DNA of 64,000 bases from assembly GCF_963676685.1 (NCBI RefSeq), contig NC_092353.1, positions 54,932,001 through 54,996,000 of the forward strand, in the 5' to 3' direction. The translations under genes were made by a program, and so were the position numbers. Of the stretch, positions 7,190 through 61,119 are shown piece after piece. This DNA comes from Mytilus edulis. Taxonomy: Eukaryota. The notes beneath the pieces were generated by a model that was not told where the DNA came from, did no database searches, and worked only from the letters and a program-made list of their open reading frames with translations. How positions within the stretch are numbered: position 1 is the first letter of the stretch; every line of letters begins with the position of its first letter.

Positions 7190-8285
7190 TTAATAGAACT
7201 TTCAACAATTACATAAAATCAATAATGATAAAGCAGCTTGGACATTTCAACTTGTGCACTCTTGCTTCATAAATGCAATAAAAGTATAAACAGACTAAAA
7301 TACATCGGGAGCACATCTTTTAGTTTTATGGACATTTTTACCTATTACTTCTGCTTTTTGCTTGTTTTATTCACACATTGTTGTCAATGTTATAAATGGA
7401 ATTTTATATGACTGTCATACAAGTGAGAGGTTGAATTAGCTATAAAACTAGGTTTAATCCACCATTTTCTACATAAGAAAACATAAGAAAATGTCTGAAC
7501 CCAGTCAGGAATATGACGGTTCAACTTATATCCATTCGTTTGTTGTGTTTGAGCTTTTGATTTTGCCATTTGATTGAGGACCCTCTGTTTTGAATTTTCC
7601 TTGGAGTTTGGTATTTTTGTTATTTTACATTTTATAGCATTCATCTGTTGTAGGGGAGATGAGGGGCCGTAGAGGGGGAAGCAACTTATTTTTTATTAAG
7701 TTTTGTTTTCACTGAAAATTCACTAACATTTGGTTTAAAAAAACTGGGAACAGTATGTCAATATATATGTTCCTGAAAAAGTACTTATGTATGTTTTTTG
7801 AAAAAAAAGTTTCTAATTAGGTTCAAGTTGAAAAAATATGTTTGTAGCTAGCTAGGTCTTTATAATTATAAAAAAATGTTTGTCCAAGAATACCATCCAT
7901 CTAGCACACGATGAATGGTAGTAGCCAAAGTTATTCTGCAAAAATTCAGCAAAATTCTTTTGAGTTTTCTTCTTATATAGTAACAGAGACATATATACAC
8001 AGAGATTGGCAACTCCGTGAAATCCCGTAAAACATCGCGGCCCGGGATGAGATTCTCGTCGATAAATATTAGAACATGTAATCAAGTCAGGGATGAATAA
8101 CCTCGATAGATTATCAAGAAAAGCAATGGGAAAATGATATCATAATTTTTCCCCAAAAAAATACTTGAATATTATATTTATATATAAGTATTTATTGAGA
8201 AAAATATATTTTCTGCATTTCATAATTAAAAATTCAAATCTGGTAATTTGCCGGGGGTGAAATTCTAAATGGATTAACATTAAAC

Positions 8286-8349
8286 CAGAGACATATATAC
8301 CAAGGATTTGTATAATACAAATCCTTGTATATACGTATATATGTCTCTG
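8286..8349. mobile_element. TIR-only P-family mini-element/footprint containing a second 27-bp TIR-only footprint
   Basis: Same 15-bp TIRs (8286-8300, 8335-8349) with TSD ATTAAAC (8279-8285, 8350-8356); inner palindrome CAAGGATTTGTAT-A-ATACAAATCCTTG (8301-8327) flanked by TATATAC on both sides. Confidence 0.88.
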
Positions 8350-9084
8350 ATTAAACAAATGCAAACATATTAATTGAACCCTGATCTGAACTTTATTTGA
8401 ACAGAAGTACGTATATATTATTAAAACGTGAAAACAAAATTAGTAAATTAACATGTCTAAAAGGGAAAGAAAACTCCTTGTTCTTAAATAAAAAATATGA
8501 TTCGTGGATTTTTTTTTATGTTCCGATTTTATTTCTTTGAAAATTGATTTCCGTGACTTTACATTTCAATATCTGTATGGTGTTTCAGACTTTATAAAGG
8601 AGATTAGCATGCACAATTGAAGTTACTTTTGTGGGGTTCCGGGATTTGTGACCCCCCTTTTTAACCTTAAATGTTTTTGAATTGGGATATAAGATATATC
8701 ACTTTTAAAAATGGCTATTTCCGCTGCTGGATTTGGTCTTCAATCCCATGGAAGATATCTATTTACATTAATTAATGATAATTATTAATTAAATACATCT
8801 TTGTTGGAGCAGTAAAAGACATTACAGCACCGACGATGTATATATAAGGAAATGAGTGAAGCTCTGAGCTTGGGTGGTTACTGATTTGTGATGAGTTAAT
8901 TAATGAACATATTATCAAGCTTGGATGCTTGCGAATATATCAAAAGTTAAAGTTTAAATAAACGTAAATTGAGAAAAAATGTATTCCTTTTTCGGCATTG
9001 TTAATTAATTCAAATTAAAATTTGGCAATGAAAATAACTTCATTTCTATGCAAAACTTTGCACATTACACATGCAAGTGAAATT

Positions 9085-9322
9085 ATGTCGAAATCAGATT
9101 TTTTATCATGGGATGACGATTTAGACGACTTTGAACTAGCATATCTTCTTGGTGATTATACGGACACTGATACTAATGCTGACTCAGTCTCTGCATGCAA
9201 GAAGCCAAAAAAGGACATTCAGTGTTCAGGATATATGTGTCCCGATTGCAAAAAAGTGTTAAAAACAATCTCTGGCTTTCGTGGTCATACAGCAAAACAA
9301 CACGGAAAGAGCAATTTGAAAG
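9085..9322 (+). CDS. Exon 1 of transposon-borne gene: acidic N-terminus + C2H2 zinc finger
   Basis: MSKSDFLSWDDDLDDFELAYLL...YMCPDCKKVLKTISGFRGHTAKQH (C-x2-C-x12-H-x4-H); phase-1 donor AAAG|GTTTGT; alternative in-frame ATG at 9028. Confidence 0.75.
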
Positions 9323-9397
9323 GTTTGTAATATTTTTGTATTGTTTGTCCCAAATATATATATTCCCATATTTCATGAACACTTTTTGTTAAGATAT

Positions 9398-9775
9398 AAA
9401 AAAGGAGATGTGGTATGATTGCCAATGAGACAACTATCCACAAAAGACCAAAATGACACAGACATTAACAACTATAGGTCACCGTACGGCCTTCAACAAT
9501 GAGCAAAGCCCATACCGCATAGTCAGCTATAACAGACCCCGATAAGACAATGTAAAACAATTCAAACGAGAAAACTAACTGCCTTATTTATGTAAAAAAA
9601 TGAACGAAAAACAAATATGTAACACATAAACAAACGACAACCACTGAATTACAGGCTCCCGACTTGGAACAGGCACATACATAAATAATGTGGCGGGTGT
9701 TAAACATGTTAGTGGAATCCCAACCCTCCTAGTGCCCCCTAACCTGGGACAGTGGTATAACAGTACAACATAAGA
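9398..9775. repeat. High-copy interspersed repeat (SINE- or Helitron-like non-autonomous family)
   Basis: GATGTGGTATGATTGCCAATGAGACAACT...GGCCTTCAACAATGAGCAAAGCCCATA...CCACTGAATTACAGGCTC; related fragments near 20-180, 10075-10360, 21125-21280, 33240-33440, 50915-51050. Confidence 0.75.
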
Positions 9776-11696
9776 GCCAAGTTACCTCAAGAAATAATTT
9801 GTTTTTATTATATAGGACATCGAATACATTCTGCAATAGGGACTCAATATATCCTAAAGTAATACTGAAATCCTTTATTATCTCCACTTTGCTTTTTGTC
9901 TTCTTGAGATCTTAACATGACTTATCCAATATCACACAAATGACAAATCCTTTACCACTAACAGAATGAAAACTACATTGAATTAAAAATGTGCCGACCT
10001 AATGGTGTAGAATTACTTACTGTCAATATTTTTTCAAGGCTGAATAACAACAATTTCTATCTCTTCAAAATAAGGAGATGTGGAAAATGAGAATACTATC
10101 CAACTTGAATTTATAAGCAATTATAGATCTCTGTGCATCCTTTAACAATAAGCAAAACCCATTTCTTTAGATATACAAAAGATGTGATATGATTGCCAAT
10201 GAGACAACTCTCCACAAGACCAAATGACACAGAAATTAACAACTATAGGTAAGCGTGTGGCCTTCAACAATGAGCAAAGCCCATATCCCAATTTCAGCTA
10301 TAAAAGGCCACAAAATGACAAATGTAAAATAATTCAAACGACAAAAGTACAGCCTAATTTTTTCTGAAGTCTGGGTGTGTCAGATTTACTCATAACCTTG
10401 AATTCTATATCTTTTTAGTTGATTTGTTTTGCTCACTCTTCAATTTTCTGTGTAGTGCCTTGATGACTGTTATTGTCTTTTTATTGATATTTTTAAATTT
10501 CTGTGTCAATTGCTTTCCTGTAAATATTTGTCTAATTGGCAATCATACCACATCTTGTTTTTATACATAGATGTGTGTTCCTTTTTAGGAGGTTGTTGTC
10601 TCATTGCTTCAACTTATTCATTTTTCTTGTACGATATATATAGACAAATAAGTACAAATATCAGCTTTAAAATTTATTGCTTCTTGACACAATTCCATAT
10701 GGCATTTGTCATCATGATTTATATACAAATAACAAAATATATACATAGATCAAATACATATGATAAAAGAACCCAAAACTAGATATAGGACAATGTTACA
10801 CTACAAGTTCTACACAGTATTATAAAATTTTGAAATAGGATGCCAAAAAAAATCATACAATATAGAACATGCTGACATTCAAAATTGGTCAGGGAAACAC
10901 ACCCGTATCCGCCAATGGGGTTTTGGGGCATATCCCCCCCCCTCCACCCAAGAAAATTTTGAAATTTTAGATGCAAAAATCCCAAAATCTGTGCATACCT
11001 TTTGACATTTTAGGGGTTCAACATATTTTGAAATTTAAACAAGTAATAGGGACAAATTATTTATTTATTTACTGAAAAAGGACTTTCTTGACGGGATATT
11101 AGTAACTGAAATGTCACTTTTCCGGGAAACGGGAAATGGTAACCTTTATGCCCTAGCATGAATAACAGTCTAATATATTATTTAAATTCTAGAAATTATT
11201 ACGAGTGAAAACCCCTTAAAATTCTCAAAGTTGAGTACACATATGTTTATGAATAATAATTTCACCCGATTGGCATTTATTTTTGAATCAAATTAATTGT
11301 GCAAGTTGGAGCACTTAAAATATCCCATGATGGAAGTTTGTTAATATGTAGAATTGACCAAAAAAATCAAACAACAAAGTCTATGTCCATAAAACTGAAC
11401 CATATATTTAAACAATATTGTCATGACATTCCCTAGTAGTCTATGTACATCATGTAAGTTACTCATACATCTTTAATGAAAAAATATCACACAAAAAAAT
11501 ATTTGGTTCGTCAAGCACTCAACAAAAAATACCCAATAAATAAACTAAAAAATGTATACAAATTTCCATTGTTTAACACTTAAAATAATAAAATAAATCC
11601 TCAATACAGTTATTTTTATACATATCATGTTATTTGTTTTTAATTATTTGAATTCATTCTTTCACATGAGAATTATATGATTTTTTTTCATTACAG

Positions 11697-12739
11697 CTTT
11701 TCAACACAGAATCCAAAATGGTGAGGTCCTTCAAGACCAAATAACTACTCCTCAATCAGATAAGAGTCAACAATCTACAATGACAGCAGTCACACTGGAC
11801 TCGATCTTCCAATCTGCATACAACAATACTCTCATATGTATTGAAGAGGACCCTATGTACAATATTTTTGGCGAGTCCACAATAGTTCAAATTGCTAAAA
11901 GCATTTCTGATAGCGTTGAGGTAAAGACATTTTTCTATGACCTGTTCAGGGAGATATTTAACTCAAATCCTAACTTAAGTTTGAATCATGACAGGGAGTT
12001 ATTTTTTACAAAGTTTCATGCTTTAAGACTCAGTTCATCAATTGACAAAGGATACACCGATCACTTCAGTCAAAATGGTTTTACACCTCTGGACAATAAA
12101 AATTTCATTCAAATAGTTATGTTGGAATTAATTAACCAATTGCTTTCTCAACAAACAATCCAAGAACAGAAATCATCCGATATAAATCACTCAGAGCTCA
12201 GCGAGAATGATCAAAATATCTTGTATTACATCTGTGGTTATATCATTCGTGCATGTGAAAAACGCTATTCCAAGCTTAAAGGTGACCTTCGGTCAATGAA
12301 GATCAACTGCATTGAGCAAGTTAAGTCGACATCAACTACTAATTCCTTTGTAAGCAAATACAACAAATGGACAGAGAAGAACGACAGAGGTGGTTTGATA
12401 ATGCCCTCTGACAACTTTTATTTGTTGACCAGGGAATTTGAAACTGTTGTAAGGAAGCACCTAGGAGACCAAGAACTAAATGCTAAATCCCTGCTACATG
12501 ATAAATTGAAAGAACTTATTATGGAATCATTCATGGTAAAATATTACTCTGAGCAGATTTTTGTGGGTATTGACTATGACGACTACGTTTTAATCTTGGA
12601 GGACATCATTCACCTATTTCTGACAATCCGTGGATTTTCTACTGCCAAAGTGATTAGAAACAAAATGATAAAAGACAAGGTCACATCAAAGAAGTCTTTG
12701 AGCCTAAGACAAGTTTTGAAGGAAAAACATAACAATTAA
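11697..12739 (+). CDS. Exon 2 of transposon-borne gene: P-element/THAP9 transposase C-terminal-domain-like protein (spliced product ~426 aa)
   Basis: TTTTTTTTCATTACAG acceptor, phase 1 matching the 9322 donor; stop-free 1043 nt; motifs LSENDQNILYYICGYIIR, DRGGLIMPSD, EFETVVRKH, LFLTIRGF and a basic tail. Confidence 0.82.
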
Positions 12740-13050
12740 CTGTACCATTTGTATACATGTGAAATGTTAAAAACATCAGTTACATTTATCTCAGTGCTTA
12801 GTCTTATTTATTGACTTTTCATAATTATATGTTCATAAACTTTGTTGTTATCATACATTTGCAATGTTCATGTACATGATATGTATATAATTATGAGTTG
12901 ACATTTAAAAAAAATGCAATTTCAGACACATAGACTTACAATTAAAGTTTATCTTAAGCATAACAAATGTTGTCTTTCTTCATTTCTTCATTTTACATTT
13001 ACACATTATAGCATTTACTTAATCTCTACTGGCTTTCAGATAATCAGTAT

Positions 13051-13935
13051 TTATCGTTTTCGTTGTAGTTTCGTGTTGTCGATAACATTTTCATTATTGT
13101 TAACATTTGTTATATTTCCACGCTTGGGATTCAATGCTTGAGCTCCAACAGCACGTAACTGTGTCATGGTATTTCTTACTTCATAAACGCTGGGGTTGTT
13201 ATTGGCTCCTCCCTTGTGTCTATAGTGACCGAAATGTTGTTCTAGGGGGTCTTGGTTGAAGTTGTAAGTTAGTACGAAATCTGCTCCTTGGTCCAACATA
13301 AATTTCACACATTCTGTTATAGAATTTATACTGATTTTCACCCCAGCTATAGTTTGTGCGCTTAGTTGCATAGATAATTTCTGTGAAGGTGTCAGGTTTG
13401 GTCTTTGCATGACTGACTGCTTCCATTCCTTTAAATAGTCCAAAAATGTTGATTTTAACCAAGTAAGTCGAGGATCATCACCACCTGTGAAGGGTTCTAA
13501 ATCAGGATTCCTTTTATTACGTCCTTCAAACAAATTTCTCACATTCAGGCAATCGAAAAATTTATTGAAGTTTCGAATAAACAAAACAGTTTCTGACACA
13601 CTGTCATCATACAAATGTTCCAAGGCATTGGCCACACTACCACTTAAAATTTGAGCAGCCAAATTTACCTTCATATACGTGAATGCTGCCAGGTCAATGT
13701 GGCTCCTTGTCAACTTTGGACAGGGACTATATAGTTGCAACTCACAGTGTTCCTCAAACAGTCTCACCATGTGCATCCAAGAGATGTCTTTTCCATTTTT
13801 CCATAGTCGTCTGGTGTTTTTATGGGAGAATGAGTTGCTAAAACAGTTTCTGGCAGTCTTAATTAAATGGGGGACATCTGAGATAAAATACAAATTTCTG
13901 CTGTTGTCATGTGGGTTGATGGTGAAATAAACGGG
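13051..13935 (-). pseudogene. 5'-deleted P-element/THAP9-type transposase (294 aa remnant, stop-free)
   Basis: LYFISDVPHLIKTARNC (D/CxxH motif), KLTRSHI...MKVNLAAQILS (GTP-binding insertion), FNQDPLEQHFG...GGANNNP (catalytic Glu). The N-terminal region and first two catalytic Asp are absent; homology runs directly into the TIR. Confidence 0.92.
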
Positions 13936-14004
13936 TATATATGTCTCTGATAGTAACACTATATAAATCCTTGATTTATCATGTTTTGATCTGATGTACA
14001 CTAT

Positions 14005-14117
14005 GGAAGGTCGGTGGTTCCCTCCATGCATTGCAGCTTCCTCCAGCAAAAAAAAAACTGACACAAAATAGCACAATAGTATTGAAATTGTAACACCAAT
14101 CTATCAATCAATCAATC
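14005..14117 (+). mobile_element. 3' fragment of V-domain-like SINE
   Basis: GAAGGTCGGTGGTT...CTTCCTCCA...AAAACTGAC and (ATCA)n tail, same family as 29523-29783. Confidence 0.6.
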
Positions 14118-14253
14118 TGCTGTAAATTATCTTATTACTAAGGTTATACACTTCATATGGAGGTGTTCCTACGTAAAAGAGGCTGATACACAGAAGAAGC
14201 TTCTTAGCACATTATCAGTCGTTTCTCTCCCTGTCGTTATATTCCCCTTGTTT

Positions 14254-14753
14254 ATGATGGAAAAAAGAAAACTGTCATCATCAGAAGAGTCCCAATACGA
14301 CCACAAGCTGTCATCTTTAGAAAGCAAACGACAAAAATCCTCGAACTTCAGAACAGAAGACTTGACGGACATAGGGGTATTTTTTGCAGACAATCCGATT
14401 ACTGTGTTAGAAGTAAAAGAAAAACTTCAACTTGCATTGGAAATAGTTCCACAAAATAACAGAAGAAGTTGCAGGAATCTGAGAAGAAACACAGTAGAAA
14501 TTCCCACCTGTATTGAGTCCCTGTCCAAGTTTACAAAAGAGCATGTGACTTTTACCTTGGAGGAAGTTGACTGGAATAAGAAAGTGTCATTAGCACCAAA
14601 ATTTCGAAATGAACTTCTAGAAATTGAAAGAGAAGCAATTATAGACCTCCTGAAGGCAAAAACTGATCTAATGGATTTTTCGGAAGAATTTCTGAATGAC
14701 GAGACAAACAAGTTTAGCTTGTTTACTGACAAGCATGACAGGCTTGGCAAAAG
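14254..14753 (+). CDS. Uncharacterised PD-(D/E)xK nuclease-like gene, exon 1
   Basis: ATG ATG GAA start, 500-nt open frame, phase-2 donor AAAG|GTAGAC. The frame is open without ATG back to 14086, so an upstream exon is not excluded. Confidence 0.72.
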
Positions 14754-16345
14754 GTAGACCGCTTGTTCCACTTCTTGGGGAGAATAGGAGGGGTCCTATA
14801 ATCACGAAATCCCGGGCTTTAAAACATAAAATCCTGAGTTCTGAATTTAAATAAGTTTAAATCCCGACTTCCCAAATTTAAATAAGTTTACATCCCGACA
14901 TCCCAAAATTAAAATAACATGAATAAAGAAATCCCGGATCCCGAAAGTGTCAATCCAGAAATTCCGAGCTTAAAAACACCTAATCCTGGAGTCCAGATAA
15001 ATGCCTATCCCCCCTCACTTTGTTATTTTAATATTTTAATGTACATGTATATTTCATTATAATGATGTAGCGTTGTCATTTTTTGTAACACAATATCACT
15101 CTCAAGTCTTCTAGCTTACTTTCTCCACTCTATATTCGGTCTCTCTGATCTCTCTGGCATCCCCTTATAAACATACATGTACTTACAGGCATCCTGACGG
15201 TTTCAAAGATAGGGTACTGGGCGGTTCTAAAGATGGGCTACCGGGCGGTAACCTGACAGTTTCAATGATGGGGAACTAGACGGTACCCGACGGTTCCAAA
15301 GATGGGGTACCGGTGGTTCTAAAGATAGCGGGCGGTGCCTTATAGAAATGTAATTTAACCCAAATGTATTAATAAAAAGATATGTTACATAATAATAAAT
15401 TATACTGTCAAACTAAAATCGCTACATAAGTTATTTTGATTGACTTTCAGCAATCTCATGTCATTCTGAAATCAACCTTCATTTCAAAATGAATGTAACG
15501 TACAATTTCATGATGACAAGAGCTTCCACAAAAAAGTCCACAGGTAAATAAGAAAGACTTGATTAAAATCATGTTTTCATGAATTGAACAATTCTTTTAG
15601 AAATTTTATAGGTTTGTATAACATGTATAAGCGTTGACAGTGAGCACATTTTTAAAATGAAGCGCTGAGTCTGCCCTTCATACAAAATGTACTTCAGTCA
15701 ACGAATTTACAGCTAAATAAATTTAACAGAAAGAAGCTTTCAATTCTCATGATTCTTAAATACATAATAAAATTGAAAATGGTAATGGGGAATGTGTCAA
15801 AGAGACAAACAACCTGACCAAAGAGTGAAAAACAGCCAAAGACCACCAATAGTTCTTCATCCCAGCAAGAAAATCCTGCATCTGGAGGCACACTGCAACA
15901 TGACTTACTTAGTCTAACACATTAAAACTCAGTTTAAAAGAAGTCTGAGCCTGATGTACACAAGTGGGTAGCTCCCACAATCACAAAGATTAAAACTATT
16001 TATTTCCTAAACATAGTAACATACATGTAGCTGTATTTTGTATAATGTCTATAGCTATTTCATCATGGAACACTTTCTCCACAGTCAGGGGTCAATTAAG
16101 AGATGAAAATAATTTTGACATTTGTGTTACAATTTAAAAAGCTATCAATGTATTAATTTCAGTTGCAGTATAAAAAAAATATTAGGTCAATGTCATAAAA
16201 ATATAAACTTTTTTGTTCTCGCGCAAAAATGGGGAAGGGCTCGGTAGAACCTCACCCTTCCCCAGTTTCTCAGTCTCATACAAAAAAGTTTATATTTTCC
16301 AGACATTGACCTAATATTGTATATATGTGTCAGTGGCATACTTAA

Positions 16346-44000: not shown

Positions 44001-47000
44001 TAAATCCATTTGAAAACATGCTGTTTTACTAATTTTCTTAACATGCTTGTAATTCCAAAAAACAATCCTGTGTTACAGTTTAGCTTTCAAAGATCTGCCT
44101 GCCATCCAATTACATGTAATTAATGTAGACTTACAAAAACACATGACACAGAGTTCTTATGAGGGTACCTTCATGAAGAATAACAGTTAAAAATCTGGAC
44201 AAATGAAGTTAACAGTAACTTTAAGTGGATGATTAAACATATAGTTTTTTTATAGAATGATAAAAAATGTCCACTGATTTTGACTTATCATTGTTAAATT
44301 TTTCCAAAAATAACAGTAATGGACAATTATTTGAGAGCTCTGATGAATCACACTTAGGTTTTTTTGACAAGTAGTGATATGGTTAAAACAATGTGACACT
44401 AACTATAGCTGAAAAATGACGTTTTGATGTCCGACGGAAAAGACTGTAACATGTATAAAGAGGGTAGCAATTACCTTTATCATCAGCCTTGTAACAGTCA
44501 TTTTCTGCGACTGTTAGCATCAAATTGGTTAAAAGTTACCATGATTTGTCAAAATATCCTAATCGTGATTCATTAGAGGTTTCAAATAAATATTGTTACC
44601 AATATTTACGGAAAATATTTAACCTGATTTGTCAAAATCAGTAAAAAAAAATTATAATCTAAGAGATGTGTACATTTTTTTGAAACAAACTTAAAATTAC
44701 CGTTAATGCATTTGACAAGAAATTCTATCTTTGTTCGGCAATACCACCCTCTGTAAATTTAAGGCTTAATTTCTACTGAGGGGGGAGGACAGAGTTGTCC
44801 TGATCCGGAAATCCTGGGCTTAAAAACATGATCCTGAGGTCCCAAATGAAAAAAAATAAAAAAATCCTGACATCCCAAAATTCAGAAGAAAAAAAATCCC
44901 AGATCTCGAAAGGACCAATCTCGAAATCCTGAGCTTAAATAGTTATCACAGGTACCAGGATTATAAACACCCGATCCCGACGTCCAGAAAAAAGTCCTGC
45001 CCCTCTCTACTGTAATGACATGAGGGTGCTATAAACAGTTTTGTATAAAAGACCAGAAGCTTGGAAGATGTTATTCCCCAACTAAAATAGAGGGGGGATA
45101 GGAGGGGTCCTGATCCCGAAATCCAGGGCTTAAAAACACGAAATCCTGAGGTCCCGAAGTTTAATTAAAGTAAATACGGACATCTCGAAATCCGAAAAAA
45201 AGAATTCCTGGATCCCGAAAGGGTCAATCCCAAAATCCAGAGCTTAAAAACACCTGATTGCGGTGTCCCGATAAAAGTCCTATCCCCCCTTAAAATAATC
45301 ATGGAAGGAAACCCTTGTTTATTTACTCAATTGATGAAAAAGTATCATGTTTTTTGTATAATTGATTGTAAAAATAAGTTAATTAGCTTTAAATTAAAAC
45401 AGGTTGAATGATAGAAATAATTCAAAAAATTATATTAAATATACATGTTTTGAGGGGAGACAACACTGTAAACATCCTGTTTTTTTAGCAGTGAAAATTG
45501 AAAACTTATTTGCTTATACACAAAATTTGAATGTTCTGTCTTATTAGACAACAAAGAGACAGAATGGTTTGCAGTGGACTCCGGGGTAAGACAAGGATGC
45601 ATCATCTCTCCTATCCTATTCCTAGTTGCAATCGATTGGGTAATGAGAAAAACCACAAATGACGAGAAAAGAGGAATAACATGGTCTATGTTTACAACAC
45701 TGGAAGACCTAGATTTTGCAGATGATATTGCCTTATTATCATCTCGGCATGATCATATGCAAGAAAAGACCAACAGACTCAGCCATTTCGCAAGCCAAAC
45801 CGGACTCCAACTCAACACACAGAAAACAGAGGAAATGAGATTAAACACCTCATCTCAAAGAAAACTAGAGGTTGATGGAAATGAAATTCAAAAAGTTGAT
45901 AAATTTATTTATTTGGGCACAGTCATCAGCACTAAAGATTCTACACAAAAGGACATCAAAAACAGATTGGCAAAAGCAAGAACATCATTTCAAAAACTAA
46001 GGAACATCTGGAGATCAAAGCAATACAGCCGAAAAACAAAAATCAAATTATACAATAGCAACGTAAAACCTGTTCTTTTGTATGGAAGTGAATGTTGGAG
46101 AGTTACGAAAGCAGATATGAGGGCACTTTCTTCATTTCACCACAGCTGCCTCCGACAAATCTGCAGAATATTTTGGCCTAATACCATCTCGAACACCAAC
46201 CTACTAAAAATGACAGAGTCGTCATGTATAATCGACGAGATAACACAGAAGCGCTTCCGGTGGCTTGGACATGTTTTGAGAAAGGAAAACTCAAGCATAA
46301 CAAAAACAGCCCTTAGATGGACACCACAGGGAAAGAGACCAAGAGGACGTCCCAAAACAACATGGCGGAGGACAATAGAGAATGAATTAAAAGACCTAAA
46401 GATGACATGGGGAGAGGCAGAAACAATGGCAAAGAACAGAACAGAGTGGCGAGGACTTGTGTTGACCTTATGCTCAGATCGGAGCAAAGAGGATAAGTAA
46501 GTAAGTAAGTAAGTATTTGCAGCCGACTGTAGCTCTTTCGGAGCAGAAGACCATATCCTGAAACAAGATTTTTTTTAAAGGCTGAGGTAAAAACCTACAA
46601 ATTTCATACAGTTTTGATTATGTAAAATGTGCATGGATCATGTCTTCATGGGTGTGCACATGACCTGGTTTCAAGTTTTTTTATGTTCAAATTAGACCTT
46701 TTTTCCCCCATGTTCATTGAAAGGATTTTTTTTAATATATTAAAAGTACACATTTTTTTTATTTCATTATAAACTAGAGAATCTCATAAACATGTTTAAC
46801 CCCACTGCAATTTTGCACCAGTCCCAAGTCAGGAGCCTCTGGCCTTTGTTAGTCTTGTATAATTTTTAATTTTAGTTTCTTGTGTATAATTCGGAGTTTA
46901 TAATGACGTCCATTATCACTGTACTAGTATACATATTTTTTAAGGGGCCAGCTGAAGGACACCTACGGGTGAAGGAGTTTCTCACTACATTGAAGACACA

Positions 47001-57801: not shown

Positions 57802-58245
57802 GTAAGTGTATAATTAACATCTAATATGTAATATAGGGGAGGGAAGGAGGGTAAACCATTCTGCATGGCTGTTAGTCATAAAACTTAACTCAGTGTTTGG
57901 GAATACATTCATGTGACATTGTACAATCAAGTTTTGGCTTGAAACACTAAATCCAGTATTTTGATTGGTTGAATTCTGAGTCTGAGTATGATAATTGTAC
58001 TCCAAATGTTTATGTCTGCAGGGCGAACACAATACAAGAAAGTCATTTAGATTACCGATATGTAGGTAAATACTCTATACTTCAACAGAAATGTATCGAT
58101 TTTAATAAAAGAAAATCCATAAATTTTTTATAAGGTAGGCATAAAATTTAGAATATGTAGGAAACAGATCACAAGAATTGTTTGGCCTCCTTAGAAATAC
58201 CAACGTTTATACCAATTCTAGTCCTTATAATGCTTTATATTCCAG

Positions 58246-58468
58246 TGTTGAAGCTAGCTTAGAGCATGTTCCATTTAAGAAGTTAGATTTTGGCAGTACC
58301 TCAGTGTTAGAAGAGTTTTACAATGCTGATGTTGTGGTCGTGGATATGACGATACCAGTGCAACAGTCAGCTTTATTTTATCATATTGGTGTACGACAGA
58401 GTATGGGCATGAAACACAACATTGTCCTATTTTATGACACTGATGTGGAACAGTCTTTATCACTTAAG
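58246..58468 (+). CDS. MAP3K15: ASK-family MAP3K, second coding exon (thioredoxin-binding domain)
   Basis: LEHVPFKKLDFGSTSVLEEFYNADVVVVDM...LFYHIGVRQSMGMKHNIVLFYDT matches recalled ASK1 LHFGKLDFGETTVLDRFYNADIAVVEM...LFYHLGVRES; AAG|GTGAGT donor; the gene continues beyond the window. Confidence 0.93.
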
Positions 58469-61119
58469 GTGAGTTTCAGAAGTGGTTGTGTCCAAACTGT
58501 AGAATTTTCTTTCGAGTTGAATGTCATTAAAATTTGAGATACAAGCCAGAGTTAGGAGTACTTGACATGTAATTTTGACCCTTTATGCACACATCATTTC
58601 CTGTAGCATGTGTAGTATGAGAGAATTTATCAGATTTTTTGTTTGTTTTTTGGTTTCAACATGTCCAAGCAGGTGAGACATCATGAACATATCCCAGTTT
58701 GAAAGGGTTTATTGAAAGTAAGTTAGTATAGCACTCTTTTTGAGTTTTTCGTAAGTCAGGATACCGTAATTCAGTGGTTCTAATTGGTTGCTGTTTGTCA
58801 TATACATGTTTCTTTTTTGTTTTTAGCAATGATCAGGCAGTTTGTTTTTTCATTTAATTGTAGATTGTTCACATTTTGTCATGCATTTTTACAGCTAACT
58901 GTATGGCCATGGTATACCTTTTGCTTATTGTTGAGGACCATGCAGTTAACTAAACTGTCTGGTACCAATATTGTTTGCTCATTGTTGAAGATCATGCAGT
59001 ATCCTGTTGTTGTTGACATCCTTGCTCTTCGGTCTGATGGATTGTTCATTTACATATAACATCCCTGTATTTTCATACCAGTATAATGTTTTTCTTAAAG
59101 CATGAATATGTTGTATAAAAATATGTTGTATCGAGCACGACAGATCATTGTAAGATAAATTTAAAAGGTTTCACCCTTTCACTTAATCATTGTTAATGAT
59201 TTACTCTGACGTTCATTTTTTCACTTGGAAAAAAAATATGCTTATCTTGAAAATGAAATAAAGGTAGCACTTTTGTCATAATTTTAAAATTGAAGCAACT
59301 CTCAGCTTAGGATTGAAAGATTAAAACATTTCCATTTCCATTTCCACTGAACTAGTACACCTTTTTGTTTAGGGGCTAGCTGGGGCTTGCCTATGGTTGC
59401 AGGATTTTCACGCTCTGTTGAAGAGCTATTGGTTGCCTTCTGGTATTTTCTGCTCTTTGGTCGGGTTGATGTCTCTTGACACATTCTCAATTTCCATTTT
59501 CAATTTTATTGAAATATATTTGATCAATTCAAACAAATTATGAAATTACAAACCGTTTCTAAGAATTTGGATAGCCTGCTAAATTTTATGTAATTAAGAT
59601 TATAAAGAGGATTAATGAGAGGTCTTTTCTATGTATGTGATAATCATATTTTAACAGTACATTTACATTTTCGCAAAGAAGACATTTATTTCAAGGATTT
59701 TCATAAATTTAGTAACCACATACAGTCTGGCAATGATTTTTACACTATTTGTTTGTAGGGATTCATGGGAGATGCCAGACAAAAGGTGCATTAGATATTG
59801 TTGTAAACCTGTTTGATTATTAACCATGTTGTTTCCATAGCTTCATATAACAATATAATCACATTGACCATTCCAATTTGTCACCAATTTATACATCCAT
59901 GTCTTTCCCTGTGAAGTAGTTGTCATGTAAATGCTTTAAATCATTCCATGGAAGATCTTAATGCCCCAGCAGTAGCAGAGGGGGCATTAAGTTTTATAAT
60001 TACTCTTGTCCTTCCTTCAGTCCTTATGCAAGTATGTACGTTCCAAAATTGCAGTGTTTCACGCTGAACTGCTAAATCTACAGGCCCGCAGCTCAATTTT
60101 TGAAAATTTTTAGTTAGATTCTGTTGGCCTGTATGTCTAATTTTTACAGGCCCGAGAGCAATTTTACCAGCCTGGGCTGCCTGGGCTGCCACTTGGCGTG
60201 AAGACTGAAATTGGTTTCAGTTCTCAAACTTTAGTTTGTCTCAACCAAATGTTATACACAATGCTTATAACCACAAAACACAGATCAAGTTTGAATTTTG
60301 GTGGCGTCACTTTAATTGTTCTAGAGTAATGTCCATTACAAATGGGAAAAATTGCTGATATTTTCGTTTCCGTTCTCTAACTTTAGTTTGCCTCAACCAA
60401 ATATTATGAAAGTTATACACAATGCTTATAATCAGAAAACACAGATCAAGCACAAATTTGGGTAGCCTCATTTTTACCATTGCTCAGTGATAACTTTATA
60501 TTATATGCAAGAGAGGGCATTATCTTTGTCCCATGGTCACATTTCCTATTTATTTGTTTATGAATCGTGCAATCCCCCTATATGTATCCATATATTAAAG
60601 TTTTGTCCAATCATTTAAGGTTTTTGTAGTATAGAAATTAGAAAAAAATAGCACATGCCAGTCTATTTGCATGAATTTGATGCAATGATTTCAAGTTATG
60701 TGATAAAATAACTCAAGAACACAATATCTAAGGGAAACGAATGTTAAGTTTGCCACTGAAAAAGGTGGATTCAAGGAATTAAAGTTTTTGTTTCTGTTAC
60801 ATCAAGGTTTAAATAGATTATAGGTTTATACTCTAAACTGGAGAAAATGACTGTGGAACAAAATGATAACCAAATTATCTGAAGTGTTGCTTTTTGACAA
60901 CACAGTTACATGTACGTTTGTGTTTATGAATATAAGGGAATTTGGGTAAACATCTTAGAGTGGTATTATCAGACTTTTTAGGCACAATAAGAAATACTAG
61001 CTGTTTCTACTTGTAATGATTCTAAACTCCATTTGCACATAAATCTCAACGTCATAAGTAGCGTGACGCTACAATACATACCTAGCGGTACCGCGAACTT
61101 CTAATGAACAGTCCTGAAC

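Follow-up and report, generated by a model that had tools for sequence, protein, structure and literature searches.

The window analysed here, 64,000 nucleotides of the Mytilus edulis genome (NC_092353.1, positions 54,932,001 to 54,996,000), holds a gene whose product joins an acidic-aromatic peptide and a single C2H2 finger to a helical region and a domain like the CTD of P-element transposases. Such a protein, encoded within a transposon, raises the question of whether it binds DNA in place of a missing THAP domain, regulates the transposase, serves the host or forms part of the transposase itself. The last of these is considered probable: the predicted models point to a split transposase, the putative tail subunit of which is given in trans. 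The features on which the argument draws are collected in Table 1.

Table 1. Features of the gene, of the element that carries it and of related second frames in distant families
Feature	Position	Strand	Remarks
Left TSD, ATAGTAA	7977..7983	+	same 7-mer at 13950-13956
Left TIR, 31 bp	7984..8014	+	31-bp TIRs in the copy with both ends whole
64-bp remnant: two 15-bp TIR stubs with own 7-bp TSD	8286..8349	.	putative nested excision footprints
27-bp remnant of a second family, own 7-bp TSD	8301..8327	.	inside 8286..8349
Exon 1, coding part	9085..9322	+	acidic W-D peptide, basic patch, C2H2 finger; donor AAAG/GT, same place in four families
Acidic-aromatic peptide, residues 6-26	9100..9162	+	W9 in 30/37 and D10 in 32/35 aligned rows; low pLDDT
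Single C2H2 finger, residues 52-73	9238..9303	+	C52, C55 invariant in 19 full-length homologues; pLDDT >90
Intron, phase-1 GT-AG	9323..11696	+	holds common genomic repeats; missing from intronless paralogue families
Exon 2, coding part including stop codon	11697..12739	+	acceptor TTACAG/CT
All-helical domain, residues 109-244	11783..12190	+	best Z 7.5, within background
Predicted P-transposase CTD homologue (THAP9_C), residues 245-406	12191..12676	+	6p5a_B
Basic tail with conserved SLR motif	12677..12736	+	R417 in 98/101 rows
Transposase gene, 3' third	13051..13934	-	PF21788 and PF21789; GTP-binding insertion, last RNase H part, own stop
Right end, outer 15 bp of TIR only	13935..13949	-	abuts mid-transposase sequence
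Right TSD, 7 bp	13950..13956	+	identical to left 7-mer
PIF1-type second frame	L132:657-4001	-	Pfam
PIF1-type second frame	L135:5100-8372	+	Pfam
PIF1-type second frame	L137:5397-8816	+	Pfam
PIF1-type second frame	L139:2504-4711	-	Pfam
PIF1-type second frame	L142:5617-7581	+	Pfam

Gene structure and transcript data

Spliced in phase 1, the two exons give an open frame of 426 amino acids, or 445 if an alternative in-frame ATG at 9028 is used. The 426-aa product is 100% identical to M. edulis record CAG2220533.1 (P0013), differs at one residue from M. galloprovincialis record P0001 and shows 92-99% identity with records from M. galloprovincialis, M. trossulus and M. coruscus. A reading made from the sequence alone had proposed a two-exon protein of about this length with a phase-1 GT-AG intron, which the open frame and the identical record bear out; it listed the second open reading frame as 11780-12739, but exon 2 starts at 11697 and 11780 is an internal ATG. 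The donor and a phase-1 acceptor recur at the equivalent place in four diverged families of the M. edulis genome, and in two further families the gene is intronless with peptide, finger and body in a single frame. At the level of sequence, homology and gene models support the splice and confirm that the two-exon reading frame is real.

Spliced reads had been proposed as a check, and none across the 9322/11697 joint was among the joints listed in eight runs (three raw and five contig). Exon 1 had zero coverage in the three raw runs, 6-18% of which was read, and in the five contig runs. The acceptor at 11696 was crossed unspliced by contigs of four runs, for which the run type RNA is a guess. 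A caveat that applies to these figures is that the runs were ranked by shared words over a mostly intronic stretch, which biases them toward unspliced sources. Differences in the contigs at 10867, 10934 and 11391 are also present in a copy of the element on C13, and the contigs therefore need not derive from the 9085-12739 locus. Three contigs end at 10661-10667, near a minus-strand AATAAA at 10678-10673, and might represent a transposase read-through transcript; there are nine such hexamers in 2.65 kb, so no weight is given to this. An open frame of 223 codons at 14086-14757 (+), just outside the element, has no Pfam match.

The surrounding transposon

The gene lies in an element of 5966 bp (7984-13949) with a 7-bp duplication on both sides. 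Its 31-bp TIRs and 7-bp TSD agree with the short TIRs and 7-8 bp TSD of the P superfamily, in which the TSD may be 7 bp, and the first 26 bases of the TIR were found at 68 places in the genome with at most one mismatch (control 0). The 5' part of the transposase has been deleted from this copy; the product of what is left has 277 of 281 residues equal to the full-length transposase P0186, known from other Mytilus records. Over 5524 bp the C13 copy, on a different chromosome, shows 99.2% identity, and it has its own TSD and its own breakpoint; the family is therefore young, and the copies were cut individually once they had inserted. Among the best transposase matches in the assembly there was no complete copy of the family. 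A one-sided TIR stub of 13-19 bp is found in this copy and six others (seven one-sided deletions), and four of six distinct short TIR-stub pairs have TSDs. The stub lengths would fit repair after the 17-nt staggered cut made by P. The copy in the window is probably immobile by now, and could still provide a subunit if expressed.

Domestication as a host gene, or passive carriage without a role in transposition, is very improbable for this gene. The frame is intact beside a cut transposase and host annotations treat it as an ordinary gene. The near-identical C13 copy at another site with its own TSD means, however, that this intactness reflects youth; the gene stands between TIR and TSD, and it co-diverges with the transposase. 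It is thus neither single copy, nor free of TIR and TSD, nor at a fixed locus, and the earlier suggestion of a candidate for domestication is largely refuted.

Smaller remnants were also seen. In addition to those in Table 1, which come from two P-like families, the C13 copy (about G000:C13:50177093-50177114) has an independent 22-bp remnant in the corresponding part of the element, at a distance of some 30 bp, and such neighbouring remnants hint at hot spots for insertion within the left arm of the element itself. Directly outside the right TSD, 13957-13973 is a 17-bp end of a second (CAAGGA-type) TIR, for which no partner end was found in the window. Elsewhere in the window there are a LINE reverse-transcriptase fragment (45502-46500, +) and an exon of an ASK/MAP3K-type kinase gene (58145-58537, +).

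Two genes on opposite strands

The layout was surveyed in 33 regions of the M. edulis genome, 24 of which contained transposase sequence, 13 of these 24 having been picked via the second gene. A CTD match was present in a separate opposite-strand frame in 19 of the 24 and in the transposase frame in none. Six of the 11 regions picked by transposase alone had the CTD match and two more align; the remaining three are a broken copy of the same family, a copy cut by a LINE and a copy with a candidate second frame. Over seven families the identities of the two genes covary (rho 0.90; 18 of 21 pairs, the pairs being non-independent). A comparison of dN/dS among paralogues, another of the checks proposed, gave non-neutral values of 0.07-0.28 for exon 1 between families, with dS near saturation and within-family counts too small to weigh, and 0.07-0.37 for the body among five copies of one intronless family. 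By these ratios, purifying selection acts on both exons.

Homologues that have both the peptide and the finger come from Mya, Pecten, Haliotis, Littorina, Owenia and Ptychodera; conservation of the finger and W-D peptide thus spans molluscs, an annelid and a hemichordate. In three cases a second-gene record and a transposase record lie on contigs of equal length, all under 400 kb (47,830; 158,827; 369,864), which suggests linkage in other genomes as well. In the sponge Ephydatia muelleri a 1222-aa model (KAL5471612.1, P0285) carries the helical domain and CTD in one chain with the transposase, after it, and there is a second 1222-aa sponge record on another contig; the fusion comes from a gene model and may reflect the merging of two genes. 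No longer fused homologues were found in a search that was weak by the tool's own note.

In distant families of M. edulis the second frame reaches about 1100 aa and consists of a PIF1 helicase, the helical domain and the CTD followed by a PHD finger. The helical-plus-CTD core of these PIF1-type partners is homologous to that of the present protein (HHalign 98.5%, E 3e-15), and the second protein thus has a constant core with ends that vary between families. One PIF1-type family has at least 10 equal-score transposase matches in the genome. On C465 (L143-L144) a P-like transposase faces an opposite-strand frame of 677 aa; this frame contains a Y-x-Y-G-W motif, has a basic end and may be another kind of second gene. 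The P-like transposase at C1:22.53M (L069-L070) begins with a Cys-rich segment, which may resemble the N-terminal zinc motif of RAG1, and no finger exon was detected in this C1:22.5M family.

Other arrangements were also encountered. At C8:80.88M (L057-L058) and C9:18.79M (L059-L060) the transposase is nested on the opposite strand in the intron of the second gene, standing between its finger exon and its body exon. Intact two-gene elements occur in large inverted duplications at C10:60.58-60.64M (L053-L054) and C1:42.98M (L133-L134).

Predicted fold of the second protein

An AlphaFold2 model built on 116 sequences had a mean pLDDT of 85.5 and a pTM of 0.82. Residues 245-406 of this model matched chain B of 6P5A (the CTD, 617-734) with Z 10.8 and rmsd 2.4 over 118 of 118 residues, this being the sole chain at Z >=8 among 48,161; for a helical domain such a Z lies within the tool's range of caution. 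The same chain ranked first in Foldseek (prob 1.00, E 0.18) and topped a sequence-profile search of the PDB (E 0.0043). Of 12 close homologues, 11 have a precomputed PF22824 (THAP9_C) match, a direct genome search with PF22824 gave zero matches, controls included, and PF12596 scored 22.4 bits against a cut-off of 22.6. These signals are individually modest, and a CTD is predicted from the naming of one chain by three methods. The domain has the YxxGY and RGGLxxPS motifs and, in the predicted model, the helical fold and basic end of a CTD; among the homologues G260 is kept in 109/109, R310 in 108/110 and L313 in 109/109. The P-CTD-like domain of the sequence-only reading was therefore recovered by structure and by profile.

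The charge runs from acidic to basic along the protein, with 11 D/E and one K/R in residues 1-35 and 11 K/R and two D/E in residues 386-426, the latter in keeping with the basic tail noted earlier. The claim that only one Cys is kept where THAP9-type CTDs have CxxC fared less well: the stretch holds three Cys (259, 266 and 284), none of them conserved, and CxxC is missing there in 107 of 109 homologues. Its loss was consequently rejected as a special trait, absence being the norm of the family. The helical domain at 109-244, which is common to the one-piece sponge model and the PIF1-type partners, showed no evident solved relative in the structure comparison and had no usable match in the protein atlas, where the whole protein found merely finger look-alikes below 0.9.

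The partner transposase

A model of the cognate transposase (325-824) matched 6p5a_A (128-566) with Z 37.3 and a Foldseek E of 1.5e-23. P0186 scored above cut-off for PF21787, PF21788 and PF21789, and thus has an RNase H domain split by a GTP-binding insertion. The motif of the last Glu could be scored in 110 of 120 transposase relatives, and 106 of these 110 end at most 90 residues beyond it (median 65). A CTD in the same chain was found in only one of the 120, the sponge model.

Whether the partner has a THAP domain had been raised as a check, and it is without one. Two of the 120 relatives had a Pfam THAP match, and a scan of the five closest full-length relatives gave none; PF05485 was absent in a Pfam scan of P0186, P0212 and two intact in-genome frames, and no credible THAP motif was seen in the six frames of the 33 regions. 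The transposases are annotated as THAP9. At the front of the transposase there is a domain with RWD-like rows at Z 5.5-6.7, in which no solved fold stands out, and a four-Cys module (C163, C215, C224 and C227, all invariant) with conserved arginines ahead of a coiled coil. With the transposase lacking a CTD as well as a THAP domain, a split enzyme is the simplest reading.

Finger and W-D peptide

The absence of THAP from the transposases favours the proposal that the finger is a sequence-specific end reader replacing THAP, so that the protein would supply end recognition as well as the CTD. The finger is present in 15 of the 17 homologues that have peptide and body, its helix has R at +5 in 27/31, and GATTGG, at about positions 21-28, is common to the two TIR types. 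C2H2 fingers read bases through helix positions -1, 3 and 6. Here these are T/S (31/31), G (31/31) and G (27/31), which by the usual C2H2 code would be poor base readers, in a set of fingers from a search query that favours similar fingers, and the helix is unchanged across families with different TIRs. A near-invariant helix of small residues where the termini differ, together with the four-Cys module of the transposase, makes a substitute for THAP less likely; moreover the C1:22.5M family is without a detected finger exon, and a PHD finger takes its place in the PIF1-type partners. The end-reader proposal is accordingly weakened and we regard it as unlikely, a docking role for the finger being likelier. 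The description of the finger as canonical holds for its pattern (C52-x2-C55-x12-H68-x4-H73) and its well-modelled fold, but its PF00096 score of 18 bits lies below the cut-off of 25.2.

In the peptide, W9, D10 and a spaced LLG-E/D-Y/F motif are retained from one phylum to another. It had been called activation-domain-like, and is indeed acidic, but conservation by position across phyla weakens an activation role and, from sequence, the peptide would appear to be a docking motif more than an activation domain.

A split transposase

Ends, TSD, two opposite-strand genes and a transposase ending about 65 residues past the last catalytic Glu are established for the element. A predicted P-CTD fold in the second gene, together with a facing transposase that has no CTD, makes it likely that the second protein is the second subunit of a split transposase. 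The two products would complement each other along the Drosophila enzyme (128-566 for the transposase and 617-734 for the second protein), with the split falling in its disordered linker. The tail subunit would dock between the RNase H and GTP-binding domains and present its basic helix to the DNA of the transposon end and of the target. In docking or in regulation, the lost covalent linker might perhaps be replaced by the helical domain, finger and W-D peptide. A complex prediction with P0186 (325-851) and P0013, in which alignments were unused, scored 0.00 and has no bearing either way.

The protein is also rather unlikely to be a negative regulator that damps the transposase, whether through the freed CTD or through DNA mimicry by the acidic peptide. 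P elements do encode repressors, such as the 66-kDa and KP proteins of Drosophila P, but those described in the relevant part of PMC7776569 are N-terminal THAP pieces and not CTDs. Copies at C13, C10:7.03M, C1:113.5M and C8:10.1M have an open second-gene frame with the transposase partly or wholly lost, and the many deleted copies that retain the second gene without transposase fit a regulator too; these were mostly found by second-gene search, so that the retention is ascertained through the gene itself. The opposite-strand layout permits antisense control. Against regulation, the transposases here are without a CTD of their own, yet the family moved recently.

If the transposase is split, a wider and more tentative proposal is that there is a large animal P-element clade whose transposase has two subunits. 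In this clade the detached tail, which binds the target, would be a modular platform carrying either C2H2 and W-D peptide or PIF1 and PHD, and the second gene would set the time and place of integration, much as RAG2 does for RAG1; this is possible, though doubtful at present. The textbook cut-and-paste system with a single gene is the P element, and a natural split would test which steps (end pairing, cleavage, target capture) need the tail. It would also yield a transposase in two parts that could be controlled separately, with the N-terminus free on the subunit that contacts the target. Many mollusc, annelid and hemichordate gene models named 'C2H2-type domain-containing' or uncharacterised are likely to be transposon genes.

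Comparison with known systems

The two-gene layout is a real variant within the P superfamily, present here in a damaged copy. No two-gene P element was seen in full-text literature searches or in term look-ups in individual papers; supplements and Repbase may already list the layout. Added here are the form that has finger and peptide but no THAP, with the range over which it occurs, the test of the finger as end reader, the one-chain sponge model and the antisense-nested family. Further two-gene DNA transposons are Harbinger, CACTA and RAG-like elements.

The mussel element resembles the Drosophila P element and its 87-kDa transposase (6P5A/6PE2) in the 31-bp TIR, in the RNase H domain with GTP-binding insertion and in the predicted all-helical CTD with YxxGY and GGLxxPS motifs and a basic end. 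According to the part of PMC7776569 that describes the Drosophila enzyme, its CTD hangs on a disordered linker and touches transposon and target DNA, and it makes a 17-nt staggered cut, with which the short TIR stubs at deleted mussel ends would be compatible, and an 8-bp TSD, in contrast to 7 bp in the mussel. The mussel element has two opposite-strand genes where P has one, is without THAP, has a transposase front with RWD-like and four-Cys parts and adds a helical domain, finger and acidic peptide to the CTD protein. Neither trait of one-gene P and THAP9 proteins, a THAP domain or CTD and core in one chain, was found in the cognate mussel transposase. The sponge model shares the transposase clade and the order of helical domain and CTD, but is a gene model fused behind a low-complexity linker in which finger and W-D peptide were not detected.

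A THAP9_C-type domain, as in vertebrate THAP9 and zebrafish P-like elements, is precomputed on the mussel family. THAP9 is one polypeptide with THAP and CTD in the portion of PMC10824691 that deals with it, which calls the function of its tail uncharacterised, whereas the predicted mussel CTD is a separate, mobile, multicopy gene. Kolobok0 with KolX is alike in having a transposase and a second conserved gene inside one TIR pair. Kinship with KolX was rejected by its fold as described in the corresponding part of PMC9587614: KolX has a cytoplasmic-ballast fold unrelated to its transposase, whereas the mussel gene would be a detached piece of the transposase itself.
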